Source of the DNA: Armatimonadota bacterium
GTDB taxonomy: Bacteria > Sysuimicrobiota > Sysuimicrobiia > Sysuimicrobiales > Humicultoraceae
Assembly (NCBI GenBank): GCA_037443365.1
Contig: JBBIOM010000034.1
Span: 1 to 20,232 of the forward strand
Reading direction: 5' to 3'
DNA length: 20,232 nucleotides
The notes beneath the pieces are model-generated. The model was not told the DNA's origin and made no database searches. It was given only the letters and a program-made list of their open reading frames with translations. Shown piece by piece: positions 4,354 through 19,115 of the stretch. Within the stretch, counting starts at the first letter, position 1, and every line of letters starts with the position of its first letter. The position numbers were made by a program, and so were the translations under genes.

Positions 4354-4815
4354 CTACGCCTCCTGCACCGCTGCCAGGCGGTCCGCCATGGAAGCGGGCG
4401 CGCAGAGAACAAAGACGCGGTGATCCGGGGAGGCGCCGAATGCGCACTCGACCCACAGGTGATCCCCCGGCAGGATCCACGGTGCGCGATCGGCCCATTC
4501 CACGATGACGATGCCGTCACCGTCCATGATCTCTTCCAGGCCCAGGTGCGCCAGATCAGCGGCGCGCTCGAGGCGGTAGAGATCTGCATGGTAGACGCGC
4601 ACAGGGCCTGCGTACTCGCGGATGACCACGAACGACGGGCTTACCATGTACCCTCTCGCACCGGTGCCCTGCGCCAACCCCCGCGCGAGCACGGTCTTGC
4701 CCGACCCCAGCGGTCCGGCGAGCGCCACAACATCCCCAGGGCGCAGGCGCGCACCCACGCGCCGACCCAGCAACTCGGTGCCTTCGGGTGAGTGAGTCTC
4801 GGCGGCTATGCGCAT
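4354..4815 (-). CDS. tsaE: tRNA threonylcarbamoyladenosine biosynthesis ATPase TsaE
   Basis: Walker A GPLGSGKT, SPSF, HADLYRL and IVEW motifs. Confidence 0.96.
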   Translation of the reverse strand: MRIAAETHSPEGTELLGRRVGARLRPGDVVALAGPLGSGKTVLARGLAQGTGARGYMVSPSFVVIREYAGPVRVYHADLYRLERAADLAHLGLEEIMDGDGIVIVEWADRAPWILPGDHLWVECAFGASPDHRVFVLCAPASMADRLAAVQEA

Positions 4816-4845
4816 GCGACCGGGGCGCGCCAGGGGATCGCGACG

Positions 4846-10255: not shown

Positions 10256-11410
10256 CTAGTCTGCCTCCACGCCGACCGCTTCCACTGGCCTGGAGTTGCG
10301 CAGGTAGATCCTGGGAACACGCCGTCCGATGCGACAGAATATCTCATGAGGGATCGTCTGAGCGGACGCGGCAACCTCGTCCACCGGCAACCCGGGACCG
10401 AACACGATCACCTCTTCGCCCTCCCGGACCGGCGCATCGCCCGCGTCCAGCATGGTGTAGTCCATGCAGACGCGCCCGACCACAGGCAGCCGGCCACCGC
10501 CCGCAAGCATCTGCCCGGCGCCGCCCAACAGCCGCGGGTAGCCGTCGGCGTAACCCAGTCCCACCGTGGCGATAGTGGTAGCCTGCTGGGTCCGGTAGGT
10601 GCCGCAGTAGGACACCGGGGTCCCGGCCGGAACACGCTGCGCGCGGGTCACGCGAGAGGAGAGCGTCATGGCGGGGCGCAGATCCAGGGCCCCAAGGTGC
10701 GGCCCGGGCGCGACACCGTAGAGCGAGATGCCGATGCGCACCATGTCCAGGTGGGACTCAGGATGCGCGAGGGTCGCGGCGCTGGCCGCGGCGTGCGCCA
10801 TCGCCTGGGGGAACCGCTCCCGCACGAGCGCCACCGCCTGCGCAAAGGCGGCGAGCTGCGCGCGCGTGCGCGCCGGATCGGGTGAATCGGCGCAGGCCAT
10901 GTGCGTGAAGACGCCTTCCACCTCAACCTTCGAGGGATCCACACGTTCCAGAAATCCGGCCAGGTCCTCGACCCGCACGCCCATGCGCGTCATGCCGGTG
11001 TCCACCTTGAGGTGGATGCGCTGCCTGCCCCCGGGACCGGGCGACTGCGCCGCCAGCAAGGCATCGGGCGTGCCCACCGTCAGGCGGCACTGTGAGCCGG
11101 CGACGCGCGGCAGCCAGCCGCCCAGGGCCGGCCCCAGTATCAGCGTGGGGGCGCTCACGCCTGAAGCCATCAGCGCCGCGGCCTCACCCGGGGTCATCAC
11201 ACCCAGCCAGGCGGCACCGGCTTCGAGCGCGGCTCGAGCCACAGGCACGAGCCCGTGACCGTAGGCGTCCGCCTTGACCACCGCCATGAAGGCGGTACCA
11301 GCAGGGAGCAATGCGCGGATCGCGCGCACGTTGTGCGCCACGGCGTCGAGGTCAACCGTGGCCCACGTTCGCGCTCGCGCGAGCAGCAGGCGGCCTTCGA
11401 GGTCACTCAT
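10256..11410 (-). CDS. alr: Alanine racemase
   Basis: Start ATG at 11410 overlaps the nnr end; AVVKADAYGHG (PLP Lys), HLKVDTGMTRMG, FTHMACAD, VSYCGTY (catalytic Tyr), GYADG, VGRVCMD. Confidence 0.95.
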   Translation of the reverse strand: MSDLEGRLLLARARTWATVDLDAVAHNVRAIRALLPAGTAFMAVVKADAYGHGLVPVARAALEAGAAWLGVMTPGEAAALMASGVSAPTLILGPALGGWLPRVAGSQCRLTVGTPDALLAAQSPGPGGRQRIHLKVDTGMTRMGVRVEDLAGFLERVDPSKVEVEGVFTHMACADSPDPARTRAQLAAFAQAVALVRERFPQAMAHAAASAATLAHPESHLDMVRIGISLYGVAPGPHLGALDLRPAMTLSSRVTRAQRVPAGTPVSYCGTYRTQQATTIATVGLGYADGYPRLLGGAGQMLAGGGRLPVVGRVCMDYTMLDAGDAPVREGEEVIVFGPGLPVDEVAASAQTIPHEIFCRIGRRVPRIYLRNSRPVEAVGVEAD

Positions 11411-12992
11411 GGGTGGCCGGATCAAGCGGGGTGACCAGCTCGGCGACCGATCCCGAACGAACGGCCGCCAGGGCCCCGGGCAGTTCGTCGGCCACCTCGC
11501 GCGCCAGCACGCCCACCGGCCCCCGGGCCGCGGCCGCGCGGTCGCCGGCCAGGCCATGCAGGTACGCGCCTGCCCAGGCCGCCGAGGCAGGGGGCAGGCC
11601 CTGACCCACAAGCGCGGCAATGACCCCGCAGAGCACATCGCCCATGCCTCCGGCTGCCATGGCCGGATTCCCTGTGGGGATCACGAAGGCCGCGCCGCTA
11701 GGATCGGCGACGACCGTGCGCGCGCCCTTCAGGACGACCACCGCACGGTGACGCGCGGCTGCCGCGCGTGCCGAGGCCAGGCGCTGACGTTGGACCTCGT
11801 TTACGCCGCAGCCCAGCAGGCGCGCCATCTCGCCGGGGTGCGGCGTCAGGATGCGCGGTGCCCTGCCTGCGGGCAGGGCGCCAGGGGCGGCGGCCATGAC
11901 GTTCAGGGCGTCGGCGTCCAGGACCAGCGGCACAGGGCACTCCTCGAGCAGGCGCGCCACCACGCTTGCCGGCCCGTCCAGGCGCGAGATCCCGGGCCCG
12001 CAGGCGACCACATCCGCGGCACCAGCCAGCTCGAGGACGCCGCCCGCGGCTTCGGCGGCCAGGGCGCCGCCATCGTCGGGGAGCGGCACCGGCATTCCTT
12101 CAATGACCGCGGGGCCCACCACCGGGTAGATCGTGCCAGGGACGCCCAGCGTCACCAGCCCGGCGCCGGCCCGCAGCGCTCCGAGCACGGCGAGCACCGC
12201 GGCGCCGCTGTGCCCAACCGAGCCTGCGACCACCAGCACCCGGCCTACATCACCCTTGTGGGCGTCGAGGCGGCGCTGCGGGATCGCCGCGTCTGCCATC
12301 GCGCGGGTGACCAACGTGGTGGGAATGCCTGCCTCGTCGATCAGACGCCGCGGGTGTCCAACGTCGGCCACCCAGATGCGCCCGGCGTGGGCCGCGCCCG
12401 GGGCCAGGACCAGCCCTGCCTTGGGGAGCCCCATCGTGACAGTGGCCGTGGCGCGCACGGCATGGCTGTCCGCGGCGCCGGTATCGCCGTTCACGCCCGA
12501 AGGAATGTCTATGGCCAGAACCGGCCGGCCGCAGGCATTGATGGCCTCGATCGCCCTGGCCGCCAGACCCATGGCCGGGCCGCGAAACCCTGTGCCGAAC
12601 AGGCCGTCAACCACCAGGTCCGCGCCTGCCAGCATCCCGCGCAACCCTGGCATGGCCGTGCTGTCGAGATTGGCGATCTCTACCCCGGCCCGGCGGGCGG
12701 CCTGGAGATTCACCGCGGCGTCGCCGCTGATCTCGGCATCGCGGCCCACCAGCGCCACCAGGACCCGCCACCCGGCCGCCCGCAGGACGCGGGCGGCCAC
12801 CAGCCCGTCACCGCCGTTGTTGCCCTTGCCCGCGACCACGCATACGCCTGCACAGCGCCCTCCCACCAGGCGCGCGGCGGCCTGCGCCACTGCGCGCCCG
12901 GCCGCCTCCATGAGGAGCAGCGTGGGCACGCCAAACTCGTCGGCGGCCCGCCGGTCCAGTAGTGCCATCTCTTCGCTGGTTGGGAGCTTCAA
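11403..12992 (-). CDS. nnr: Bifunctional NAD(P)H-hydrate epimerase/dehydratase (NnrE-NnrD, YjeF)
   Basis: LMEAAG, GKGNNGGDG, DGLFGTG, DIPSG (epimerase); HKGDVG, GAGLV, GPG, LDADALN, TPHPGEMARL, GGMGDVL (dehydratase); TTG start with GGAGG at 12999-13003. Confidence 0.96.
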   Translation of the reverse strand: MKLPTSEEMALLDRRAADEFGVPTLLLMEAAGRAVAQAAARLVGGRCAGVCVVAGKGNNGGDGLVAARVLRAAGWRVLVALVGRDAEISGDAAVNLQAARRAGVEIANLDSTAMPGLRGMLAGADLVVDGLFGTGFRGPAMGLAARAIEAINACGRPVLAIDIPSGVNGDTGAADSHAVRATATVTMGLPKAGLVLAPGAAHAGRIWVADVGHPRRLIDEAGIPTTLVTRAMADAAIPQRRLDAHKGDVGRVLVVAGSVGHSGAAVLAVLGALRAGAGLVTLGVPGTIYPVVGPAVIEGMPVPLPDDGGALAAEAAGGVLELAGAADVVACGPGISRLDGPASVVARLLEECPVPLVLDADALNVMAAAPGALPAGRAPRILTPHPGEMARLLGCGVNEVQRQRLASARAAAARHRAVVVLKGARTVVADPSGAAFVIPTGNPAMAAGGMGDVLCGVIAALVGQGLPPASAAWAGAYLHGLAGDRAAAARGPVGVLAREVADELPGALAAVRSGSVAELVTPLDPATHE

Positions 12993-13095
12993 GCGTCGCC
13001 TCCGCCTCTGCCGTTGCGAGGCTTCTTGTCGGCGATGCCGGTTTCCTCTCGGGGCTTACCCACAGAATCCACAGCCGGGGAACAGCAGTTGGGGA

Positions 13096-13124
13096 TTGAC
13101 CGGCCGGTCCCCTGGTGCTAGGGT
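13096..13124 (+). promoter_or_regulatory. Sigma70-type promoter pointing against the operon, driving the structured RNA
   Basis: -35 TTGACC (13096-13101), 17-bp spacer, extended -10 TGc-TAGGGT (13116-13124). The purine at 13131, 7 nt after the -10, is the first base of the RNA closing helix. Confidence 0.72.
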
Positions 13125-13130
13125 ACGGCT

Positions 13131-13300
13131 AGAGGAGTGCGAGCCCAACGGCGAAGTAGCCGAGTCAAACGTCGCGCACGTGGACTCCGAAAGCCGGACG
13201 GTCTTCTCGGGAGGTAACTCCCGAGAATAGCCTACCGAGCGGTACGAACCGGCGACGCGACCGAAGACGGTGAAAAGTCGGACAAAGCGAGCGCTCCTCT
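13131..13300 (+). ncRNA. Structured non-coding RNA of ~170 nt; 6S (SsrS)-like rod or unassigned motif
   Basis: 5' AGAGGAGUGC (13131-13140) pairs with 3' GCGCUCCUCU (13291-13300). Apical hairpin UUCUCGGGAG-GUAA-CUCCCGAGAA (13204-13227) lies exactly at the midpoint. Nested helices CGUCGC/GCGACG and GCCG-GA-CGGU/ACCG-AG-CGGU; A-rich loops on this strand; own promoter; no credible ORF. Existence is better supported than family identity. Confidence 0.7.
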
Positions 13301-13315
13301 TCGATTTGCCCCACG

Positions 13316-13696
13316 CTAATCCCCGAGCGCAACCGCGCTGGCCAGAGCGAGATCGCGCGTGTGAGACAGCGTGACCAGCACGCTGGTGACACCCTGCTGC
13401 TCTGCGATCCGGCGCGCGGCGCCGTGCAGTCGCACAAGCGGCCGCCCGCACGCATCGTCTGCGATCTCTATCTCGCGCCACGCCACTCCGCGCCGTCCTA
13501 CCCCGAGCGCCTTCATCACGGCCTCCTTGGCCGCGAAGCGCGCCGCCAGCCGGGGTCCTCGGACCGCCTCGGGCCGCGCGTGCCCTGTCTCTCCCGGTGT
13601 GTAGATCCGCGTGGTGAACGCGTCGCCCCAGCGCGCAACCGCGCGCTCTATGCGGTCCACCTCGATGAGGTCGCTCCCTAGCCCGAGCACCCTCAT
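13316..13696 (-). CDS. acpS: Holo-[acyl-carrier-protein] synthase
   Basis: GLGSDLIEVDRI, LAARFAAKEAVMKALG, GRP, VTLSH motifs. Confidence 0.96.
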   Translation of the reverse strand: MRVLGLGSDLIEVDRIERAVARWGDAFTTRIYTPGETGHARPEAVRGPRLAARFAAKEAVMKALGVGRRGVAWREIEIADDACGRPLVRLHGAARRIAEQQGVTSVLVTLSHTRDLALASAVALGD

Positions 13697-13869
13697 CCCG
13701 GCGGCTCCGCCTCGTCAGCCAGCATGATGGGGATCTCTGCGCCCTCGATCCGCCGGATCGGATACCGGCGCCCGCAGGCCGAGCAGACGATGCGGTCGCC
13801 CTCGCGCACCACCGGCGCGTGGTCCACCGGGCACGCCAGCACCCGCAGGAACTCCGCGTCAATCGCCAT
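13693..13869 (-). CDS. Trm112-like (YcaR/UPF0434) small protein, 58 aa
   Basis: Not in the ORF track. MAIDAEFLRVLACPVDHAPVVREGDRIVCSACGRRYPIRRIEGAEIPIMLADEAEPPG; LACP...C..C.R.YPI...IP.ML.DEA is the family pattern. Purine-rich SD upstream; ATGA overlap with acpS. Confidence 0.88.
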   Translation of the reverse strand: MAIDAEFLRVLACPVDHAPVVREGDRIVCSACGRRYPIRRIEGAEIPIMLADEAEPPG

Positions 13870-13883
13870 CAGCGCACCCCTTC

Positions 13884-15731
<1,848 letters not shown>

Positions 15732-15781: not shown

Positions 15782-16561
15782 CTAGCCGCCTGAACCCGCC
15801 GCCCGCGGCCGCCACCGCTCGCGAAGAGCCATCAGGAACAGCGGCGGTATCGTGCGCACGACGCCCCACCTTCGCGGCTCGCGCGAGACCCTGTAGAGCC
15901 ATTCAAGACCCGCCCGCTGCATCCAGCGCGGTGCGCGCGCGACGCGACCTGCCAGCACGTCGAGCGACCCTCCCACGCCGATCACAACCGGCACGCCCAG
16001 ATCCGCGCTCCAACGCCGCATCCAGCGTTCCTGCCGCGGCGCGCCAAGTGCAACCAGGAGGATATCGGGGAGGGCAGACCGGATCTGCTCCAACACCCCT
16101 GGCTCCTGCTCTGGTTCGAAGAACCCGTGGCGGGTTCCGGTGATCCGCAGCGGCGGATGCAGCCGCCGCAGCGCCGCGGCCGCTTCCTCGGCCACGCCCG
16201 GCGCGCCGCCCAGCAGGAAGACGCCCCACCCTGCCGAGGCGGCGCTGGCGCAAAGGGCGAGCGCCAGGTCAATCCCTGCCAGGCGCTCGGAGAGCGGCAC
16301 TCCCAGTATGCGCGCGGCCAGGATCACCCCGATCCCGTCAGCGGTGACGAGCGCCGCGTCGTTGATCAGGGCGCGAAGTTCCGGGTCGCGCGCCGCCTGC
16401 ACCAGGAGCGAGCCGTTGAGGGTCACCACATAGCCGGGGTTGCGAGTCCCGATCCGGTCGCGCGCCCACCGCAGCGCGGCATCGAGTCCCACGTCGTGCA
16501 CCTGGGCTTCGAACAGCAGGCGCCTGGCCGCGGCGATCCCCGCGGGGTCCGGCCCTGTCAC
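15782..16561 (-). CDS. WecB/TagA/CpsF family glycosyltransferase (GT26, N-acetylmannosaminyltransferase-like)
   Basis: VVTLN, ADGIG, FLLGG, HGFF, VALGAPRQERW, GVGGSLD, RAPRWMQRAGLEWLYR..EPRRW; GTGA overlap with the glmM stop. Confidence 0.93.
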   Translation of the reverse strand: MTGPDPAGIAAARRLLFEAQVHDVGLDAALRWARDRIGTRNPGYVVTLNGSLLVQAARDPELRALINDAALVTADGIGVILAARILGVPLSERLAGIDLALALCASAASAGWGVFLLGGAPGVAEEAAAALRRLHPPLRITGTRHGFFEPEQEPGVLEQIRSALPDILLVALGAPRQERWMRRWSADLGVPVVIGVGGSLDVLAGRVARAPRWMQRAGLEWLYRVSREPRRWGVVRTIPPLFLMALRERWRPRAAGSGG

Positions 16562-17904
16562 GACGGCGCACCCAGACGGTCGGCGATGACCGACGCGACC
16601 CTATCCGCGACGGCGCGGGCCTCCTCGTGGCTTGCGGCCTCGACCATGACCCGGACCAGGGGCTCGGTGCCAGACGGCCTCACCAGGATTCGGCCGCGCG
16701 AGCCGAGACAGGCCTGGGCCTCGGCCACAGCCCTGTCCACCTCCGGCGCGTCAATCGGTCCGTTGCGCTCCCGCACCCGCACGTTCACTAGCACCTGTGG
16801 GAAGCGCGGGATCTCCGCTCGCAGGTCGGAAAGCCGGCGCCGGGTCGCCGCCATCACGTTCGCAAGCGCGATCGCGGTCACCAGGCCGTCCCCGGTTGTG
16901 GCCATGTCGAGAAAGATCAGGTGCCCGCTCTGCTCGCCCCCCAGCGTGGCGCCGCTCTCGATCATGCGCTCGAGCACGTAGCGGTCGCCGACCGGGGCCC
17001 GCTCGAGCCGGATTCCTTCCTGCGCCAGGCGCTGCTCGAGTCCCAGGTTGCTCATCACGGTCGCAGCGACGACCCCGCCGGAGAGCCGGCCGGTGCGGTG
17101 CCGGTGGAGCGCGCAGATCCCCATGAGCGCGTCGCCGTCAACTTCCTCGCCCTGCTCGTCCACGGCGAGCACGCGGTCGGCATCGCCGTCGTGCGCGAAC
17201 CCGACGTCGGCGCCGCAGGCCAGCACGGCCTTCCTCAGGGGACCCAGATCCGTGGAGCCGCAGCCCACGTTGATGCGGGAGCCGTCGGGCTCAGTGTGAA
17301 TTGCAGCGACCCGGGCGCCCAGCATCTCCCAGAGACGCGGCGCCACCCGTACGGCGGCGCCGTGGGCGCAGTCCACCACGACCTTCATGCCGCGGAGAGG
17401 GCCCGCGGACAGGCTGACCAGGTGCGCCAGGTAGCGCTCCACACCGTCGGGGATCGCCTCGATCCTCCCCATGGCGGTTCCGGTTGGTCGCGGGAGATCG
17501 TCTCGCTCGAGGAGGGATTCGATGGCGGCTTCCCTGCCGTCGGGCAACTTGAACCCATCGGCTCCGAACAGCTTGATGCCGTTGTCCTCGACCGGGTTGT
17601 GCGACGCTGATATGACCACCCCGCACGCGGCGCCCAGGTCGCGGGCCAGGTAGGCCACGGCGGGCGTGGTCAGGATGCCGCCCAGCAGGACGTGCCCTCC
17701 CACCGAGCAGACCCCGGCTGCGAGCGCCGCTTCCAGCATGGGGCCCGAGAGGCGGGTGTCGCGGCCCAGGATGAACGTCGCGTCCGCCCCGCCCAGCTCG
17801 GTGCCGGCCGCGCGGCCGACGCGAAACGCCAGCTCGGGCGTCAGGTCGAGGTTTGCGACGCCCCGGATCCCGTCGGTTCCAAAGAGCCGTCGGATGGCCG
17901 CCAT
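16558..17904 (-). CDS. glmM: Phosphoglucosamine mutase
   Basis: LFGTDGIRG, GRDTRLSG, ISASHNP (phospho-Ser), DGDADR, GGEQSGH, RPSGTEP. Confidence 0.97.
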   Translation of the reverse strand: MAAIRRLFGTDGIRGVANLDLTPELAFRVGRAAGTELGGADATFILGRDTRLSGPMLEAALAAGVCSVGGHVLLGGILTTPAVAYLARDLGAACGVVISASHNPVEDNGIKLFGADGFKLPDGREAAIESLLERDDLPRPTGTAMGRIEAIPDGVERYLAHLVSLSAGPLRGMKVVVDCAHGAAVRVAPRLWEMLGARVAAIHTEPDGSRINVGCGSTDLGPLRKAVLACGADVGFAHDGDADRVLAVDEQGEEVDGDALMGICALHRHRTGRLSGGVVAATVMSNLGLEQRLAQEGIRLERAPVGDRYVLERMIESGATLGGEQSGHLIFLDMATTGDGLVTAIALANVMAATRRRLSDLRAEIPRFPQVLVNVRVRERNGPIDAPEVDRAVAEAQACLGSRGRILVRPSGTEPLVRVMVEAASHEEARAVADRVASVIADRLGAPS

Positions 17905-17910
17905 GCAGTC

Positions 17911-18312
17911 CTAGGGGCGCGCGATGGTGACGAGCACGATCGCAGGAGTCGCCTGGGCCGATGCTATGCCCGCCGGGGCCGGCACCCTGAGCGTAACACG
18001 GTACGTCCCAACGTCCATGGCCCCCACCTGGGCGATGGCACGCACGTCGGACGCCCTCACCTCCAGCACGGCCGGGGTCGGTCCGCGCATCTCGAGGTCC
18101 ACGATCCGCGGGTAGGCCGTCGCCACGAGATCGGAGGACAGCCCCGCGAAGGTCACCTCCACGTTGCGCACGACCAGCGAGGCCACCATAGCGTGCTCGG
18201 GCCTGGCGATCTGCGCGCTCCCCACGTAGTACCACATCGTGGTAGCGATGGCCAGCGACAGCGCCAGCAGCCGTGCGCGCTCTGAGAACAGCCGATCGAG
18301 GCGAGCCTTCAT
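17911..18312 (-). CDS. cdaR: Short CdaR/YbbR-like diadenylate cyclase regulator, 133 aa
   Basis: Likely true start is ATG at 18312, overlapping the cdaA stop (ATGA). MKARLDRLFSERARLLALSLAIATTMWYYV matches the CdaR N-terminal TM pattern (SL..A..LW.YV), followed by one YbbR-like domain (PRIVDLEMRGP...GTYRVTLRV...P.IVLVTI). Canonical cdaA-cdaR-glmM position. Confidence 0.8.
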   Translation of the reverse strand: MKARLDRLFSERARLLALSLAIATTMWYYVGSAQIARPEHAMVASLVVRNVEVTFAGLSSDLVATAYPRIVDLEMRGPTPAVLEVRASDVRAIAQVGAMDVGTYRVTLRVPAPAGIASAQATPAIVLVTIARP

Positions 18313-19115
18313 GGATGCGCCTGGTTCCGGCGCCAGGGCCAGAGCGTCGGGCTGCGCGGCCCGCCGTGAGCCAGCAGGCCCAGCAGCGCGACCTTGAGCT
18401 CCTCCTCGGACAGGCCGGGGCTCAGGGTGCCGCCACGCGCCAGGGAAATCGCGCCGGTCTCCTCGGAGACGACCACGGCCACGGCGTCGGTCACCTCGCT
18501 GATGCCGACCGCCGCCTTGTGCCGGGTGCCCAGGGTCCGGCTCAGTTGCGGGCTCTCGCTGAGCGGGAGCAGGCAGCCAGCCGCCATGAGACGGTTGCCG
18601 CGAATCACCACCGCTCCATCGTGCAGCGGCGTGTTGTGGAAGAAGGTGGTGATGAGCAGCTGCACCGACGCCAGCCCGTCGATCTTGATTCCCGACTCGA
18701 TGACGTCGCCAAGGCCTGTGCGCCGCTCCAGCACGATCAGCGCCCCGGTCTTGCGGGTCGCGAGCACACGGCACGCCCGCGCGACGTCGTTCACAAGGCG
18801 TATCATCTCCTCGCGACCCAGTCCGTGGCCCAGCCCGGAGACAAGAACGCCGCCGCGCCCAAGCTGCTCCAGCATGCGCCGCAGTTCTGGCTGGAAGATC
18901 ACGAGGACGGCGATCGGGATAACCACTCCCAGGTACGAGAGTACCCACTGCAGCGTGCTCAGCTTGAGGAGCCGGCTGGCGGTGTAGACGACGAACAGCA
19001 CGGCCAGCCCGGTCGAGAGCTGCACGGCCCGCGTGCCGCGCACGAGCCACAGGACCTGATAGACCAGAGCCGTCACGATGGCGATGTCCAGCAGGTCTAG
19101 GGCTCGGATGGGCAT
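18309..19115 (-). CDS. cdaA: Membrane diadenylate cyclase CdaA/DacA (c-di-AMP synthase)
   Basis: LDIAIV, GTRAVQL, three hydrophobic segments, IFQPELRRMLEQLG, GALIV, PLHDGAV, GTRHKAA, VSEETG. Confidence 0.96.
   Translation of the reverse strand: MPIRALDLLDIAIVTALVYQVLWLVRGTRAVQLSTGLAVLFVVYTASRLLKLSTLQWVLSYLGVVIPIAVLVIFQPELRRMLEQLGRGGVLVSGLGHGLGREEMIRLVNDVARACRVLATRKTGALIVLERRTGLGDVIESGIKIDGLASVQLLITTFFHNTPLHDGAVVIRGNRLMAAGCLLPLSESPQLSRTLGTRHKAAVGISEVTDAVAVVVSEETGAISLARGGTLSPGLSEEELKVALLGLLAHGGPRSPTLWPWRRNQAHP

Follow-up and report, generated by a model that had tools for sequence, protein, structure and literature searches.

Among the RNAs with which the locus described in this work can be compared, 6S RNA is conserved mainly in shape, and some bacteria have two 6S RNAs. 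SRP RNA forms a long hairpin with imperfect pairing; its apical loop is of the GNRA type, and its conserved internal loops bind a protein. CsrB/CsrC, RsmX/Y/Z and Qrr are protein-sequestering or multi-paralogue small RNAs; a promoter and a terminator, several paralogues and a shared promoter type are common for regulatory small RNAs. In Y RNA and YrlA the two ends of the molecule are joined in a long stem, and several or tandem copies can occur. The window (the whole stretch of 20,232 nt that was analysed) comes from a genome of CSP1-3 (proposed name Sysuimicrobiota), a widespread uncultured phylum of soil, subsurface and hot springs. It hosts what is very probably a real stand-alone gene for a structured RNA of a new family, called rod RNA hereafter (Table 1). 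The rod RNA is the member of an undescribed family of this phylum, and is not 6S RNA.

Locus, strand and distribution

The RNA resides in the gap which separates acpS from nnr, as the first-pass annotation had reported; minus-strand genes with Pfam support are separated here by gaps of 323 and 187 nt (stretches other than 4499-4845 considered). It had been regarded as a stand-alone plus-strand gene endowed with its own promoter, and not as a cis riboswitch, and this view stands: no plus-strand gene is found in the window after the RNA, and the next gene is convergent. By its sequence the promoter is of the consensus housekeeping type. The -35 hexamer, the spacer and the extended -10 pointed out earlier are all present, and are conserved at the same distance in homologues. 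TGnTAnnn[T/A] is found 3-9 nt before the RNA 5' end in 59 of 73 distinct upstream regions, although the flanks vary, GGATTG(AC) is conserved at the -35 at at least 80%, and the same -35 / extended -10 form precedes the RNase P RNA of the same genome. A simple promoter/terminator scan of 12800-13600 found nothing, as the rule requires 9 of 12 hexamer matches and the rod RNA promoter has 8. Transcription would start at A13131, 7 nt after the -10, and plausibly terminate at the U-rich tail UCGAUUU (13301-13307). Conservation among relatives begins at 13126-13131, blastn matches start at the predicted +1, and at least five T in an 8-nt window are found within 20 nt after the closing helix in 105 of 129 distinct copies.

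Covariance model scores are 133-204 bits in the forward and no more than 30.7 bits in the reverse orientation. The consensus pairs include 381 G-U cells vs 21 A-C cells, and the RNA is therefore on the plus strand. One may argue that no RNA gene exists, and that the locus codes for a small protein or is conserved as a DNA element, since inverted repeats would exist in DNA too, and short ORFs are present. Yet, the excess of G-U over A-C cells is a one-strand RNA signature, and through compensatory changes the pairing is retained while the sequence is not. Moreover, no ORF start is common to more than 28 of 73 sequences, and the ORFs of 268 and 365 aa overlapping the locus have no Pfam match. 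Next to no credit can thus be given to the DNA-element or coding view; a small ORF or a type I toxin mRNA had been considered, and was ruled out because no ORF is conserved.

Rod RNAs have been identified by blastn in 35 of 41 relatives, and by covariance model R1 in 74 of the 94 CSP1-3 genomes, at 1 to 8 copies each. They occur also in 114 metagenome stretches (the model search of metagenomes gave 83 hits in 80 loci), and about 150 distinct natural variants are known in all. One family of genomes (f5) is devoid of them (0 of 12); in 5 of its genomes, 95-100% complete, no model match better than E 0.24 was found, and acpS and nnr abut, with no gap. A second paralogue subfamily carries another upstream motif and no DnaA-like boxes. 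A link to mobile elements was considered and set aside, the core pattern being found in 0 viral contigs, and blastn giving no plasmid or phage match.

Rod RNAs are flanked by unrelated housekeeping genes (nnr, acpS, DUF255, DUF1844, M20 peptidase). In tblastn searches of 64 genome-locus hits, nnr lies upstream on the opposite strand, 116-587 nt away, in 38, and acpS downstream on the opposite strand, 2-2953 nt away, in 24 (at most 173 nt in 21). Among the genes downstream of 143 hits, those met most often are same-strand DUF255 genes (27) and opposite-strand acpS (22). No recurring neighbour emerged when the neighbours of 20 diverged paralogues were clustered. Several "conserved" neighbour ORFs to which Pfam assigns no domain have the look of spurious frames, such as arise antisense in GC-rich DNA.

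The RNA had been described as antisense to any acpS-nnr read-through mRNA. The geometry is correct in the window, but antisense cannot be the general function of the rod RNA, because many copies sit at unrelated sites. In its local form, this hypothesis holds that transcription of the RNA, or its hairpin, keeps acpS and nnr apart and affects the minus-strand read-through mRNA. The antisense position between two co-oriented genes, the recurrence of nnr and acpS next to the RNA and their contact in the family devoid of it fit such an insulator. However, copies preceding DUF255 genes or residing elsewhere, and the diverged paralogues, do not, and an insulator would have no need of covarying helices, a dedicated promoter and invariant loops, which makes this role highly improbable.

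The chances of a riboswitch-like sensor are similarly slight. A ligand would stabilise P1, P1 and the U-rich tail would terminate transcription, and read-through would control the downstream gene. The loops are highly conserved, a U-run is found directly 3' of P1, in two loci two tandem copies precede one gene, and redox or NAD chemistry is suggested by the presence of nnr and DUF255 nearby. Against this, no consistent downstream same-strand gene, as a riboswitch or cis leader would regulate, was found over the 143 hits. The DUF255 genes inspected, among them those following tandem copies, have their own TATAAT 3' of the RNA tail, each tandem copy carries its own promoter and tail, and no Rfam riboswitch matches.

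Table 1. Features of the rod RNA locus and of a second small RNA gene of the same genome
Feature	Position	Strand	Remarks
nnr	11403-12992	-	
nnr-acpS gap	12993-13315		between two minus-strand genes
DnaA-box-like 9-mer TTACCCACA	13056-13064	+	adjacent to the next; the two lie 58-75 nt upstream of the 5' end
DnaA-box-like 9-mer GAATCCACA	13065-13073	+	
GAAC-N4-GTTG motif GAACAGCAGTTG	13080-13091	+	ends 4 nt before the -35
-35 hexamer TTGACC	13096-13101	+	
Extended -10 TG-c-TAGGGT	13116-13124	+	17-nt spacer to the -35
Rod RNA (predicted ends)	13131-13307	+	about 175 nt; covariance model score 191.7 bits
P1, closing helix	13131-13140 with 13291-13300	+	compensatory at 4 of 8 modelled pairs
P2	13149-13152 with 13277-13280	+	CGGC with GUCG
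Internal loop GAAGUA/GAAAA	13153-13158 opposite 13272-13276	+	resembles loop-E / bulged-G motif
P3	13159-13166 with 13266-13271	+	GCCG with CGGU (13268-13271); 2-nt bulge, then UC with GA (13266-13267)
P4, long interrupted helix	13171-13187 with 13246-13261	+	holds invariant CACGUGGAC (13177-13185)
Internal loop CGAAA/GGUAC	13188-13192 opposite 13241-13245	+	second loop-E-like motif, opposite orientation
Middle helix	13193-13203 with 13228-13240	+	register varies by subgroup; paired in every subgroup; only 2 pairs of the segment in the model
Apical hairpin	13204-13227	+	GUAA loop 13214-13217; stem 13204-13213 with 13218-13227
acpS	13316-13696	-	
Second small RNA, unannotated	G000:C26:23331-23415		other contig; shorter hairpin; same composite promoter

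Fold and covariation

As judged by comparative folding, the rod RNA is one long, imperfect and unbranched hairpin of about 55 pairs. The plus strand folds at -78.1 kcal/mol (z -4.09; none of 200 shuffles equals this), the minus strand with a z of -2.63. A structure-blind alignment (MAFFT and RNAalifold) gave 41 pairs, 17 of which with compensatory changes; the other alignments (A3, A4) were fitted to the model, and favour its structure. In 73 distinct genome copies 98.8% of the cells are paired, vs 34-59% in controls in which partners had been slid, compensatory changes are found at 18 of the 41 pairs, and cells changed at both sides are 240 vs 85 in shuffles, none of 500 shuffles reaching the observed value. 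The 75 distinct metagenome copies behave similarly (98.7% of cells paired, 17 of 41 pairs compensatory, 188 both-side-changed cells vs 52 in shuffles). The long hairpin thus has the support of two independent sets of sequences. When folded without constraints, 61 of 73 sequences form one unbranched hairpin, with a median of 38 of the 41 consensus pairs recovered, and 12 of 73 are branched. In the window's own sequence the branched fold has the minimum free energy (-78.1), with the rod 2.5 kcal/mol less stable.

The 10-bp closing helix P1 had been correctly drawn, and covaries (AU 47 / GC 24 and AU 40 / GC 31 are examples). In P2 the pair 19-162 is CG in 53, UA in 13 and GC in 3 of the 73 genome copies, and the pair 21-160 is GC in 44, GU in 26 and AU in 3; CG 44 and UA 23 are found in the 75 metagenome copies. 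P3 pairs are invariant (the G-U at 13159/13271 is found in 73 of 73), and therefore uninformative for or against pairing; most loop residues are likewise unvarying. P4 shows compensatory changes at 9 of 13 pairs in the genome copies (CG 49 / UA 18; GC 41 / CG 25; UA 34 / GC 33), and at 8 of 13 in the metagenome copies. The apical hairpin, GUAA loop included, is present as previously noticed, and its helix varies in a concerted manner in the 73 genome copies (CG 44 / GC 25; GC 61 / AU 12); the apical loop is of the UAA type in the main family, and variable in the diverged paralogues.

In addition to the apical GUAA, the near-invariant parts are the internal loops GAAGUA/GAAAA, AAAC/CGAA, CACGUGG/CCGGCG and CGARA/RGUAR. 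The first is near-invariant in sets of 40, 73 and 75 sequences. In the CGAAA/GGUAC loop, G-A is found at columns 64/123 in 73 of 73 sequences, and CG (46) or UA (9) at columns 63/124.

Other parts of the fold initially proposed were not confirmed. In the 73 homologues only 61.5% of the cells are paired in the intermediate helix 13193-13202/13234-13243, and 86.1% in the helix 13170-13175/13252-13257, where 31 unpaired cells fall at one pair. The two mini-hairpins exhibit no compensatory change, and 6 and 22 unpaired cells. The fold as a whole leaves 86.2% of the cells paired vs 98.8% in the consensus rod. The large A-rich bubble, regarded as a hallmark of 6S RNA, is replaced by P2, by the GCCG/CGGU pairing of P3 (13159-13162 with 13268-13271) and by P4. 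The origin of the 6S misreading is hence clear: the fold of a single sequence suggested a bubble, which comparative data close.

Upstream motifs and proposed function

The rod RNA promoter is preceded by two kinds of motifs. DnaA-like boxes were defined as 9-mers with at most 2 mismatches to TTATCCACA, CACA being kept; the latter, which we take to be the DnaA box consensus, was compared with the box cluster upstream of dnaA in the same genome. The two boxes of the window are each 1-2 positions off TTATCCACA. Among 119 distinct loci, 166 boxes are found within 200 nt upstream of the RNA in 103, and 15 boxes downstream in 15. Boxes near rod RNA promoters are about 24-fold enriched over the genome density of 0.295 per kb, and there are only 2 tandem pairs in the whole genome. 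The genome's only box cluster, which lies directly upstream of dnaA, is made of the same box forms found at the RNA promoters, and the latter are therefore flanked, at the sequence level, by candidate DnaA boxes of the organism's own type. Whether DnaA acts at the rod RNA promoter is a matter on which confidence and doubt are balanced.

The second motif, GAAC-N4-[GT]TT[CGT], occurs no more than 22 nt 5' of the -35 in 102 of the 123 distinct promoters that could be anchored, and 32 of the 123 have the strict GAACN4GTTC. The GAACAGCAGTTG of the window, just upstream of the -35, resembles candidate boxes upstream of recA (CGAACATTTGTTTG, between the -35 and the -10) and lexA (CGAACAAATGTTCG) of the same genome, but lacks the C/G on the flanks and the last C that both of these have. 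The GAAC-N4-GTTy reading relies on what we assume to be the LexA consensus. The composite promoter (boxes, motif and -35/-10) is found twice in the 2.2 Mb genome, each time before a small structured RNA. The second of these RNAs, listed in Table 1, has in common with the rod RNA a CACGUGG/CNGGCG element.

According to the scenario preferred here, a promoter of its own, of the housekeeping type (-35 TTGACC, extended -10), would drive transcription of the RNA, and the transcript would end where the closing helix meets the U-rich tail. The rod RNA may act in trans by binding a protein, as a scaffold or a decoy, and the conserved internal loops may be the sites recognised by the protein. DnaA, and possibly a LexA-like factor, could set transcription via the 9-mers and the GAAC-N4-GTTy motif upstream of the -35. 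Taken as a whole, this picture of a new-family RNA gene of about 175 nt, encoding a trans-acting, protein-binding rod whose transcription is set by DnaA, is considered fairly probable. For protein binding taken by itself the arguments weigh about equally on either side; a search for a partner in the neighbourhood (neighbours clustered for the 143 hits and the 20 diverged paralogues) returned housekeeping genes alone.

Alternatively, the rod RNA could be a trans-acting small RNA which pairs with mRNAs by a conserved unpaired stretch or by the 3' strand of P1, which is rich in pyrimidines. Diverged and tandem paralogues, a gene standing alone between its promoter and terminator, and a promoter type common to the second small RNA would all suit such a regulator. 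However, very little of the molecule is left unpaired: conserved single-stranded runs do not exceed 4-6 nt and lie inside internal loops, where conserved residues stand opposite one another, as in structured motifs, and offer no single accessible seed. Base pairing as the mode of action is accordingly held to be decidedly unlikely.

The protein-binding scenario may be extended. The rod RNA and the second small RNA could form a dedicated regulon, with promoters read by DnaA, perhaps along with LexA, and report replication or DNA-damage status to a shared partner, which would recognise the common CACGUGG/CNGGCG element and the loop-E-like loops. The regulon is speculative, and on balance doubtful. 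If true, it would represent an RNA arm of cell-cycle control, and to our knowledge none of this type is known in any bacterium. Should the promoter motifs prove to be genuine sites for DnaA or LexA, a testable link would be established between replication status and RNA-based regulation. The natural variants, the covariation, the near-invariant loops and the dedicated promoter provide in any event a level of support usually limited to RNAs with an important cellular role.

Relation to described RNA families

The first-pass annotation had left two options, a divergent 6S RNA or an undescribed class of RNA. The latter holds, because no Rfam 15 family matches in the window or in 20 homologous loci. 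At gathering score the window has 0 matches to the 4227 models; with E up to 10, the four matches at the locus all have E of at least 2.8, and 13-16 bits; with E up to 1, the 20 homologous loci have one match, which falls outside the RNA. In the literature on CSP1-3 / Sysuimicrobiota or on structured noncoding RNA of Armatimonadetes, supplements aside, no published description of the rod RNA was found, nor did a literature search retrieve one of the 15-base conserved stretch. The terms non-coding, noncoding, ncRNA and small RNA are absent from the main text of the two main genomic descriptions of the phylum. For a chemoautotrophic enrichment, PMC11604079 reports a stranded metatranscriptome said to extend to 12 Sysuimicrobiota MAGs.

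The rod RNA resembles 6S RNA in length (about 175-180 nt) and in standing alone as a gene behind a strong promoter; both are closed by a long helix and have a terminal hairpin, and the rod RNA, too, may act by binding a protein. It could accordingly be imagined as a divergent or second 6S RNA, which binds the RNA polymerase holoenzyme as a mimic of an open promoter; the lowest-energy fold of the window's own sequence has an open central region, and a second 6S RNA would have precedents. However, RF00013 has no match at 12950-13450 with E up to 10, or in the 20 homologous loci with E up to 1, and a canonical 6S RNA is encoded elsewhere in the genome (G000:C4:3474-3655; 74.6 bits, cut-off 46.4). 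In addition, the centre is paired by covariation, the mini-hairpins lack compensatory changes, and most homologues (61 of 73) fold as a rod without a large bubble. Near-invariant loops and up to 8 copies per genome are also unlike 6S RNA, and this identity is regarded as very unlikely.

Signatures of SRP RNA, RNase P RNA and tmRNA had rightly been reported as absent from the locus, and the corresponding genes are on other contigs. The SRP RNA of the genome (G000:C16:46632-46897) scores 72.2 bits with RF00169 and 176.1 bits with RF01854 (large type), and neither model matches at the rod RNA locus. As 6S, SRP, RNase P RNA and tmRNA are each found elsewhere in the genome, the rod RNA replaces no missing housekeeping RNA. 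With bacterial SRP RNA (4.5S or large type) it shares the shape of a long hairpin interrupted by conserved internal loops and capped by a GNRA-type loop; the sequences of the loops differ, and the rod RNA, unlike SRP RNA, is multi-copy.

In two rod RNA internal loops (A/G)GUA is opposite GA(A/R) beside a helix, presumably the loop E / sarcin-ricin (bulged-G) arrangement of 5S and 23S rRNA. The likeness is at the level of the motif alone; 5S rRNA and other Rfam models have no match at the locus. As in Y RNA and YrlA, the two ends of the rod RNA meet in an extended stem, and several copies, some of them in tandem, may be present. A Y RNA / YrlA acting with Ro60 (Rsr) was nevertheless rejected as a candidate, since a search to which control genomes respond detected the TROVE domain (PF05731) in none of the 94 CSP1-3 genomes, and no Rfam match was obtained. 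From CsrB/CsrC, RsmX/Y/Z and Qrr the rod RNA differs in being one rigid rod, with no repeated GGA hairpin loops and no sequence similarity; yet it has in common with them a stand-alone nature, diverged and tandem paralogues within one genome, and a shared, dedicated type of promoter.

A covarying rod encoded in the acpS-nnr gap

The RNA described here is an independent gene unit, encoded on the plus strand and folded into a covarying rod with invariant loops. The genes of the window form a minus-strand array, continuing past alr. The first-pass annotation had called attention to a promoter, a closing helix and a hairpin in the gap between nnr and acpS, and this basic observation is real, since the sequences are in place and the plus strand folds better than shuffled versions (-78.1 kcal/mol, z -4.09, none of 200 shuffles being as good); the minus strand has a z of -2.63. 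Two long ORFs, of 268 aa (13056-13862, minus strand) and 365 aa (12133-13230, plus strand), overlap the locus. Neither has a match in Pfam, and both seem to be frames left open by chance in GC-rich sequence. No ORF is kept across the homologues of the RNA.

Coordinates of the rod RNA gene, its elements and associated genes (window positions unless a contig of the window's own genome, G000, is named)
Feature	Coordinates	Strand	Remarks
cdaA-like gene	18309-19115	-	
glmM	16558-17904	-	
WecG-type transferase gene	15782-16561	-	
glmS	13884-15731	-	
acpS	13316-13696	-	
nnr	11403-12992	-	
alr	10256-11638	-	
Gap between nnr and acpS	12993-13315		323 nt; rod RNA gene on +
-35 TTGACC	13096-13101	+	then 17-nt spacer
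Extended -10 TG-c-TAGGGT	13116-13124	+	
P1, closing helix	13131-13140 with 13291-13300	+	then variable internal loop
P2	13149-13152 with 13277-13280	+	
Internal loop GAAGUA / GAAAA	13153-13158 opposite 13272-13276	+	
P3	13159-13162 with 13268-13271; 13165-13166 with 13266-13267	+	then loop AAAC opposite CGAA
P4	13171-13187 with 13246-13261	+	holds invariant CACGUGGAC
Internal loop CGAAA / GGUAC	13188-13192 opposite 13241-13245	+	
Middle helix	between CGAAA/GGUAC loop and GUAA hairpin		register varies by subgroup
Apical hairpin	13204-13227	+	perfect 10 bp, GUAA loop
Second unannotated small RNA gene	G000:C26:23255-23425 = L306:1056-1226		outside the window

RNAalifold, run on a structure-blind alignment, returned one long hairpin of 41 pairs, 17 of which show compensatory changes. 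This is the unbiased control for the alignments of genome and metagenome copies, which were fitted to the model and favour its structure. Among 73 distinct genome copies 98.8% of the cells (one base pair in one sequence) are paired, against 34-59% in slid controls, and 18 of the 41 pairs are compensatory; the figures for 75 distinct metagenome copies are 98.7%, 37-59% and 17 of 41. Two-sided changes affect 240 cells in the former set versus 85 after shuffling (0 of 500 shuffles reach 240), and 188 versus 52 in the latter. Folded without constraints, 61 of the 73 sequences form a single unbranched hairpin, a median of 38 of the 41 consensus pairs being recovered. The excess of G-U over A-C cells (381 vs 21), and model scores of 133-204 bits on the forward and at most 30.7 bits on the reverse strand, show that the RNA is made from the plus strand.

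The closing helix and the apical GUAA hairpin had been correctly drawn. The intermediate helices had not: only 61.5% of the cells are paired in 13193-13202/13234-13243, and 86.1% in 13170-13175/13252-13257, the register of which is shifted by the consensus. The mini-hairpins thought to define a central bubble show no compensatory changes, have 6 and 22 unpaired cells, and compete with covarying long-range pairs, among which columns 19-162 (CG 53, UA 13, GC 3), 21-160 (AU 3 among its forms) and 45-142 (CG 49, UA 18). The window's own sequence is among the 12 exceptions to unbranched folding. Because of its C-A mismatch 13177/13255, a branched fold is favoured over the rod by 2.5 kcal/mol, which is why reading a single sequence suggested a bubble.

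Distribution and genomic contexts

The rod RNA has a restricted yet deep distribution, has expanded in copy number, and owns a dedicated promoter with DnaA-type boxes. By blastn (query 13100-13315) it was matched in 35 of 41 related genomes. Most matches start at query position 26-32 (window 13125-13131), and the RNA is conserved as a unit beginning at the predicted +1. When 40 copies were aligned with their flanks by MAFFT, only promoter elements were constant upstream of +1, and only a U-rich run 3' of the closing helix, the rest being variable. The covariance model R1 finds a single copy in the window's genome (191.7 bits; next matches 18 and 14 bits), and detects the RNA in 74 of 94 genomes from phylum CSP1-3 (Sysuimicrobiota), distributed among families f1 (31/33), f2 (17/22), f4 (23/23), f6 (1/1) and f7 (1/1), and missing from f5 (0/12) and f3 (0/1). 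Genomes of f4 (3-5 Mb) can carry as many as 8 copies, among them strongly diverged ones (35-130 bits). Five f5 genomes, 95-100% complete, gave a best R1 E-value of 0.24 and no rod RNA. Three f5 genomes (loci L258, L259 and L260) preserve the glmS-acpS-nnr-alr order with acpS and nnr abutting or overlapping, and have neither the 323-nt gap nor the RNA gene; gene and promoter thus behave as a module that can be inserted or deleted.

Scanning 185,579 species genomes for an exact pattern retrieved 62 stretches, all from metagenome-assembled genomes, titled Armatimonadota, 'Armatimonadetes bacterium CSP1-3', 'Bacillati bacterium ANGP1', Bacillota, Candidatus Fervidifonticultor, Geohabitans, Calidihabitans and Thermofontivivens. 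The pattern is also found in 114 metagenome stretches and in 0 viral contigs; plasmids and phages gave no blastn match. Rows of two unpublished genomes (G015, G024) are included in alignments A1 (40 rows) and A3 (100 rows) and in the tallies of blastn relatives, R1 across the phylum, TROVE proteins and the second small RNA. No claim depends solely on them.

For 64 hits in genome loci, tblastn placed nnr upstream on the opposite strand in 38 and acpS downstream on the opposite strand in 24. Immediate neighbours of 143 hits, not de-duplicated, include opposite-strand nnr upstream (37) and acpS downstream (22), a same-strand DUF255 thioredoxin-like gene downstream (27) and a DUF1844 gene upstream (26). 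No neighbour gene recurs among 20 diverged paralogues. At two loci two copies lie in tandem, ~310-335 nt apart, each with a promoter and U-tail of its own. The DUF255 (YyaL-like) genes behind them (L091:5280-5310, L094:650-680) have their own TATAAT ~12 nt ahead of the start codon, and may thus give mRNAs with little or no leader. Both features bear out the early opinion that the RNA is no cis riboswitch, and in general it is neither a leader nor a local antisense device.

Promoter architecture and a second small RNA

The strongest clue to function is the promoter. The window's genome contains 24 instances of TTGAC-N14-16-TGnTAnnnT, a form that also precedes RNase P RNA, and the 6S, SRP RNA and tmRNA genes have TGnTAnnAT elements; the TTGAC/extended -10 form is the housekeeping promoter type of the organism. 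Three more elements are conserved upstream, irrespective of where a copy is located. The first is a single or double 9-mer similar to TTATCCACA, placed roughly between -85 and -58; the window has TTACCCACA and GAATCCACA, many relatives TTGCCCACA and CTATCCACA, and f4 a perfect TTATCCACA. The second, GAAC-N4-GTTy, ends a few bases 5' of the -35 and is found in relaxed form in 102, as a strict palindrome in 32, of 123 promoters. The third, GGATTG(AC), is the -35 with its 5' flank. Within 200 nt upstream, 103 of 119 distinct loci have DnaA-like boxes, 166 in total, and within 200 nt downstream the total is 15; their genome-wide density is 0.295 per kb. The sole genome cluster of at least three strict boxes (G000:C9:15489-15730), directly upstream of dnaA and likely the oriC/dnaA promoter region, is made of TTGTCCACA (three times), TTATCCACA, TTTTCCACA and TTGCCCACA, which qualifies the boxes at the rod RNA promoter as the organism's DnaA type. 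CGAAC-N4-GTT(C/T)G boxes reside at recA and both lexA-like genes; the second element resembles them yet is less complete, and a link to LexA is therefore only possible. In a second, diverged subfamily of paralogues (loci L265-L279, L034, L039, L069, L035, L104) DnaA-like boxes and GGATTGAC are replaced by an upstream AATACGAC, 6-8 nt and CCGATRG (R, A or G), which suggests that rod paralogues are regulated differently.

The 2.2-Mb genome has just two promoters of this composite kind, that of the rod RNA and one at G000:C26:23255-23325, where tandem DnaA-like boxes, GAAC-N4-GTTT, GGATTGAC and an extended -10 precede the second small RNA. This is a ~85-nt hairpin followed by a U-rich tail (-52.6 kcal/mol, z -5.0), with no match in Rfam and at least one compensatory change in its closing helix. 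blastn detects it in 52 of the phylum's 94 genomes, among them 31 of 33 in f1, and also in f5, where the rod RNA is absent. Its promoter segment cross-matches rod RNA promoters in three other genomes, and CACGUGG paired to C-N-GGCG is common to both RNAs. In one genome (G019:C32:19987-20370) a copy of it and a diverged rod paralogue are adjacent, on opposite strands, convergent and ~50 nt apart.

Plausible mode of action and comparison with known RNAs

The housekeeping holoenzyme would transcribe the rod RNA from 13131, with a 3' end plausibly at 13301-13307, and DnaA, perhaps also a LexA-like protein, may modulate transcription. The RNA itself would bind a protein in trans via its conserved loops. 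Protein binding is preferred over base-pairing because nearly the whole RNA is helical, and because the conserved residues lie opposite one another within structured loops, leaving no single accessible seed.

The notion of a divergent 6S RNA is not supported, as the locus has no credible Rfam 15 match and a canonical 6S RNA (74.6 bits) is located elsewhere in the genome. The proposed Rfam 15 search gave nothing at gathering score on the window, four chance-level matches on the locus at E up to 10, and, over 20 homologous loci, none falling on the rod RNA. The genome also encodes RNase P RNA (264.9 bits) and tmRNA (148.3 bits); its SRP RNA, at G000:C16:46632-46897, belongs to the large Bacillus-like class (RF01854, 176.1 bits) rather than to the short 4.5S one. 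Ro60 (TROVE-domain) protein is absent in 94 genomes. No description of the rod RNA was found in Rfam 15 or in searches of main-text literature; passages of PMC11604079 contain none of the terms non-coding, noncoding, ncRNA and small RNA, and all six keywords looked up in the main text of PMC11962464 are absent there. The rod RNA is accordingly rated as a new RNA class. Two of its loops, in which (A/G)GUA faces GA(A/R) beside a helix, resemble loop-E/bulged-G motifs in opposite orientation.
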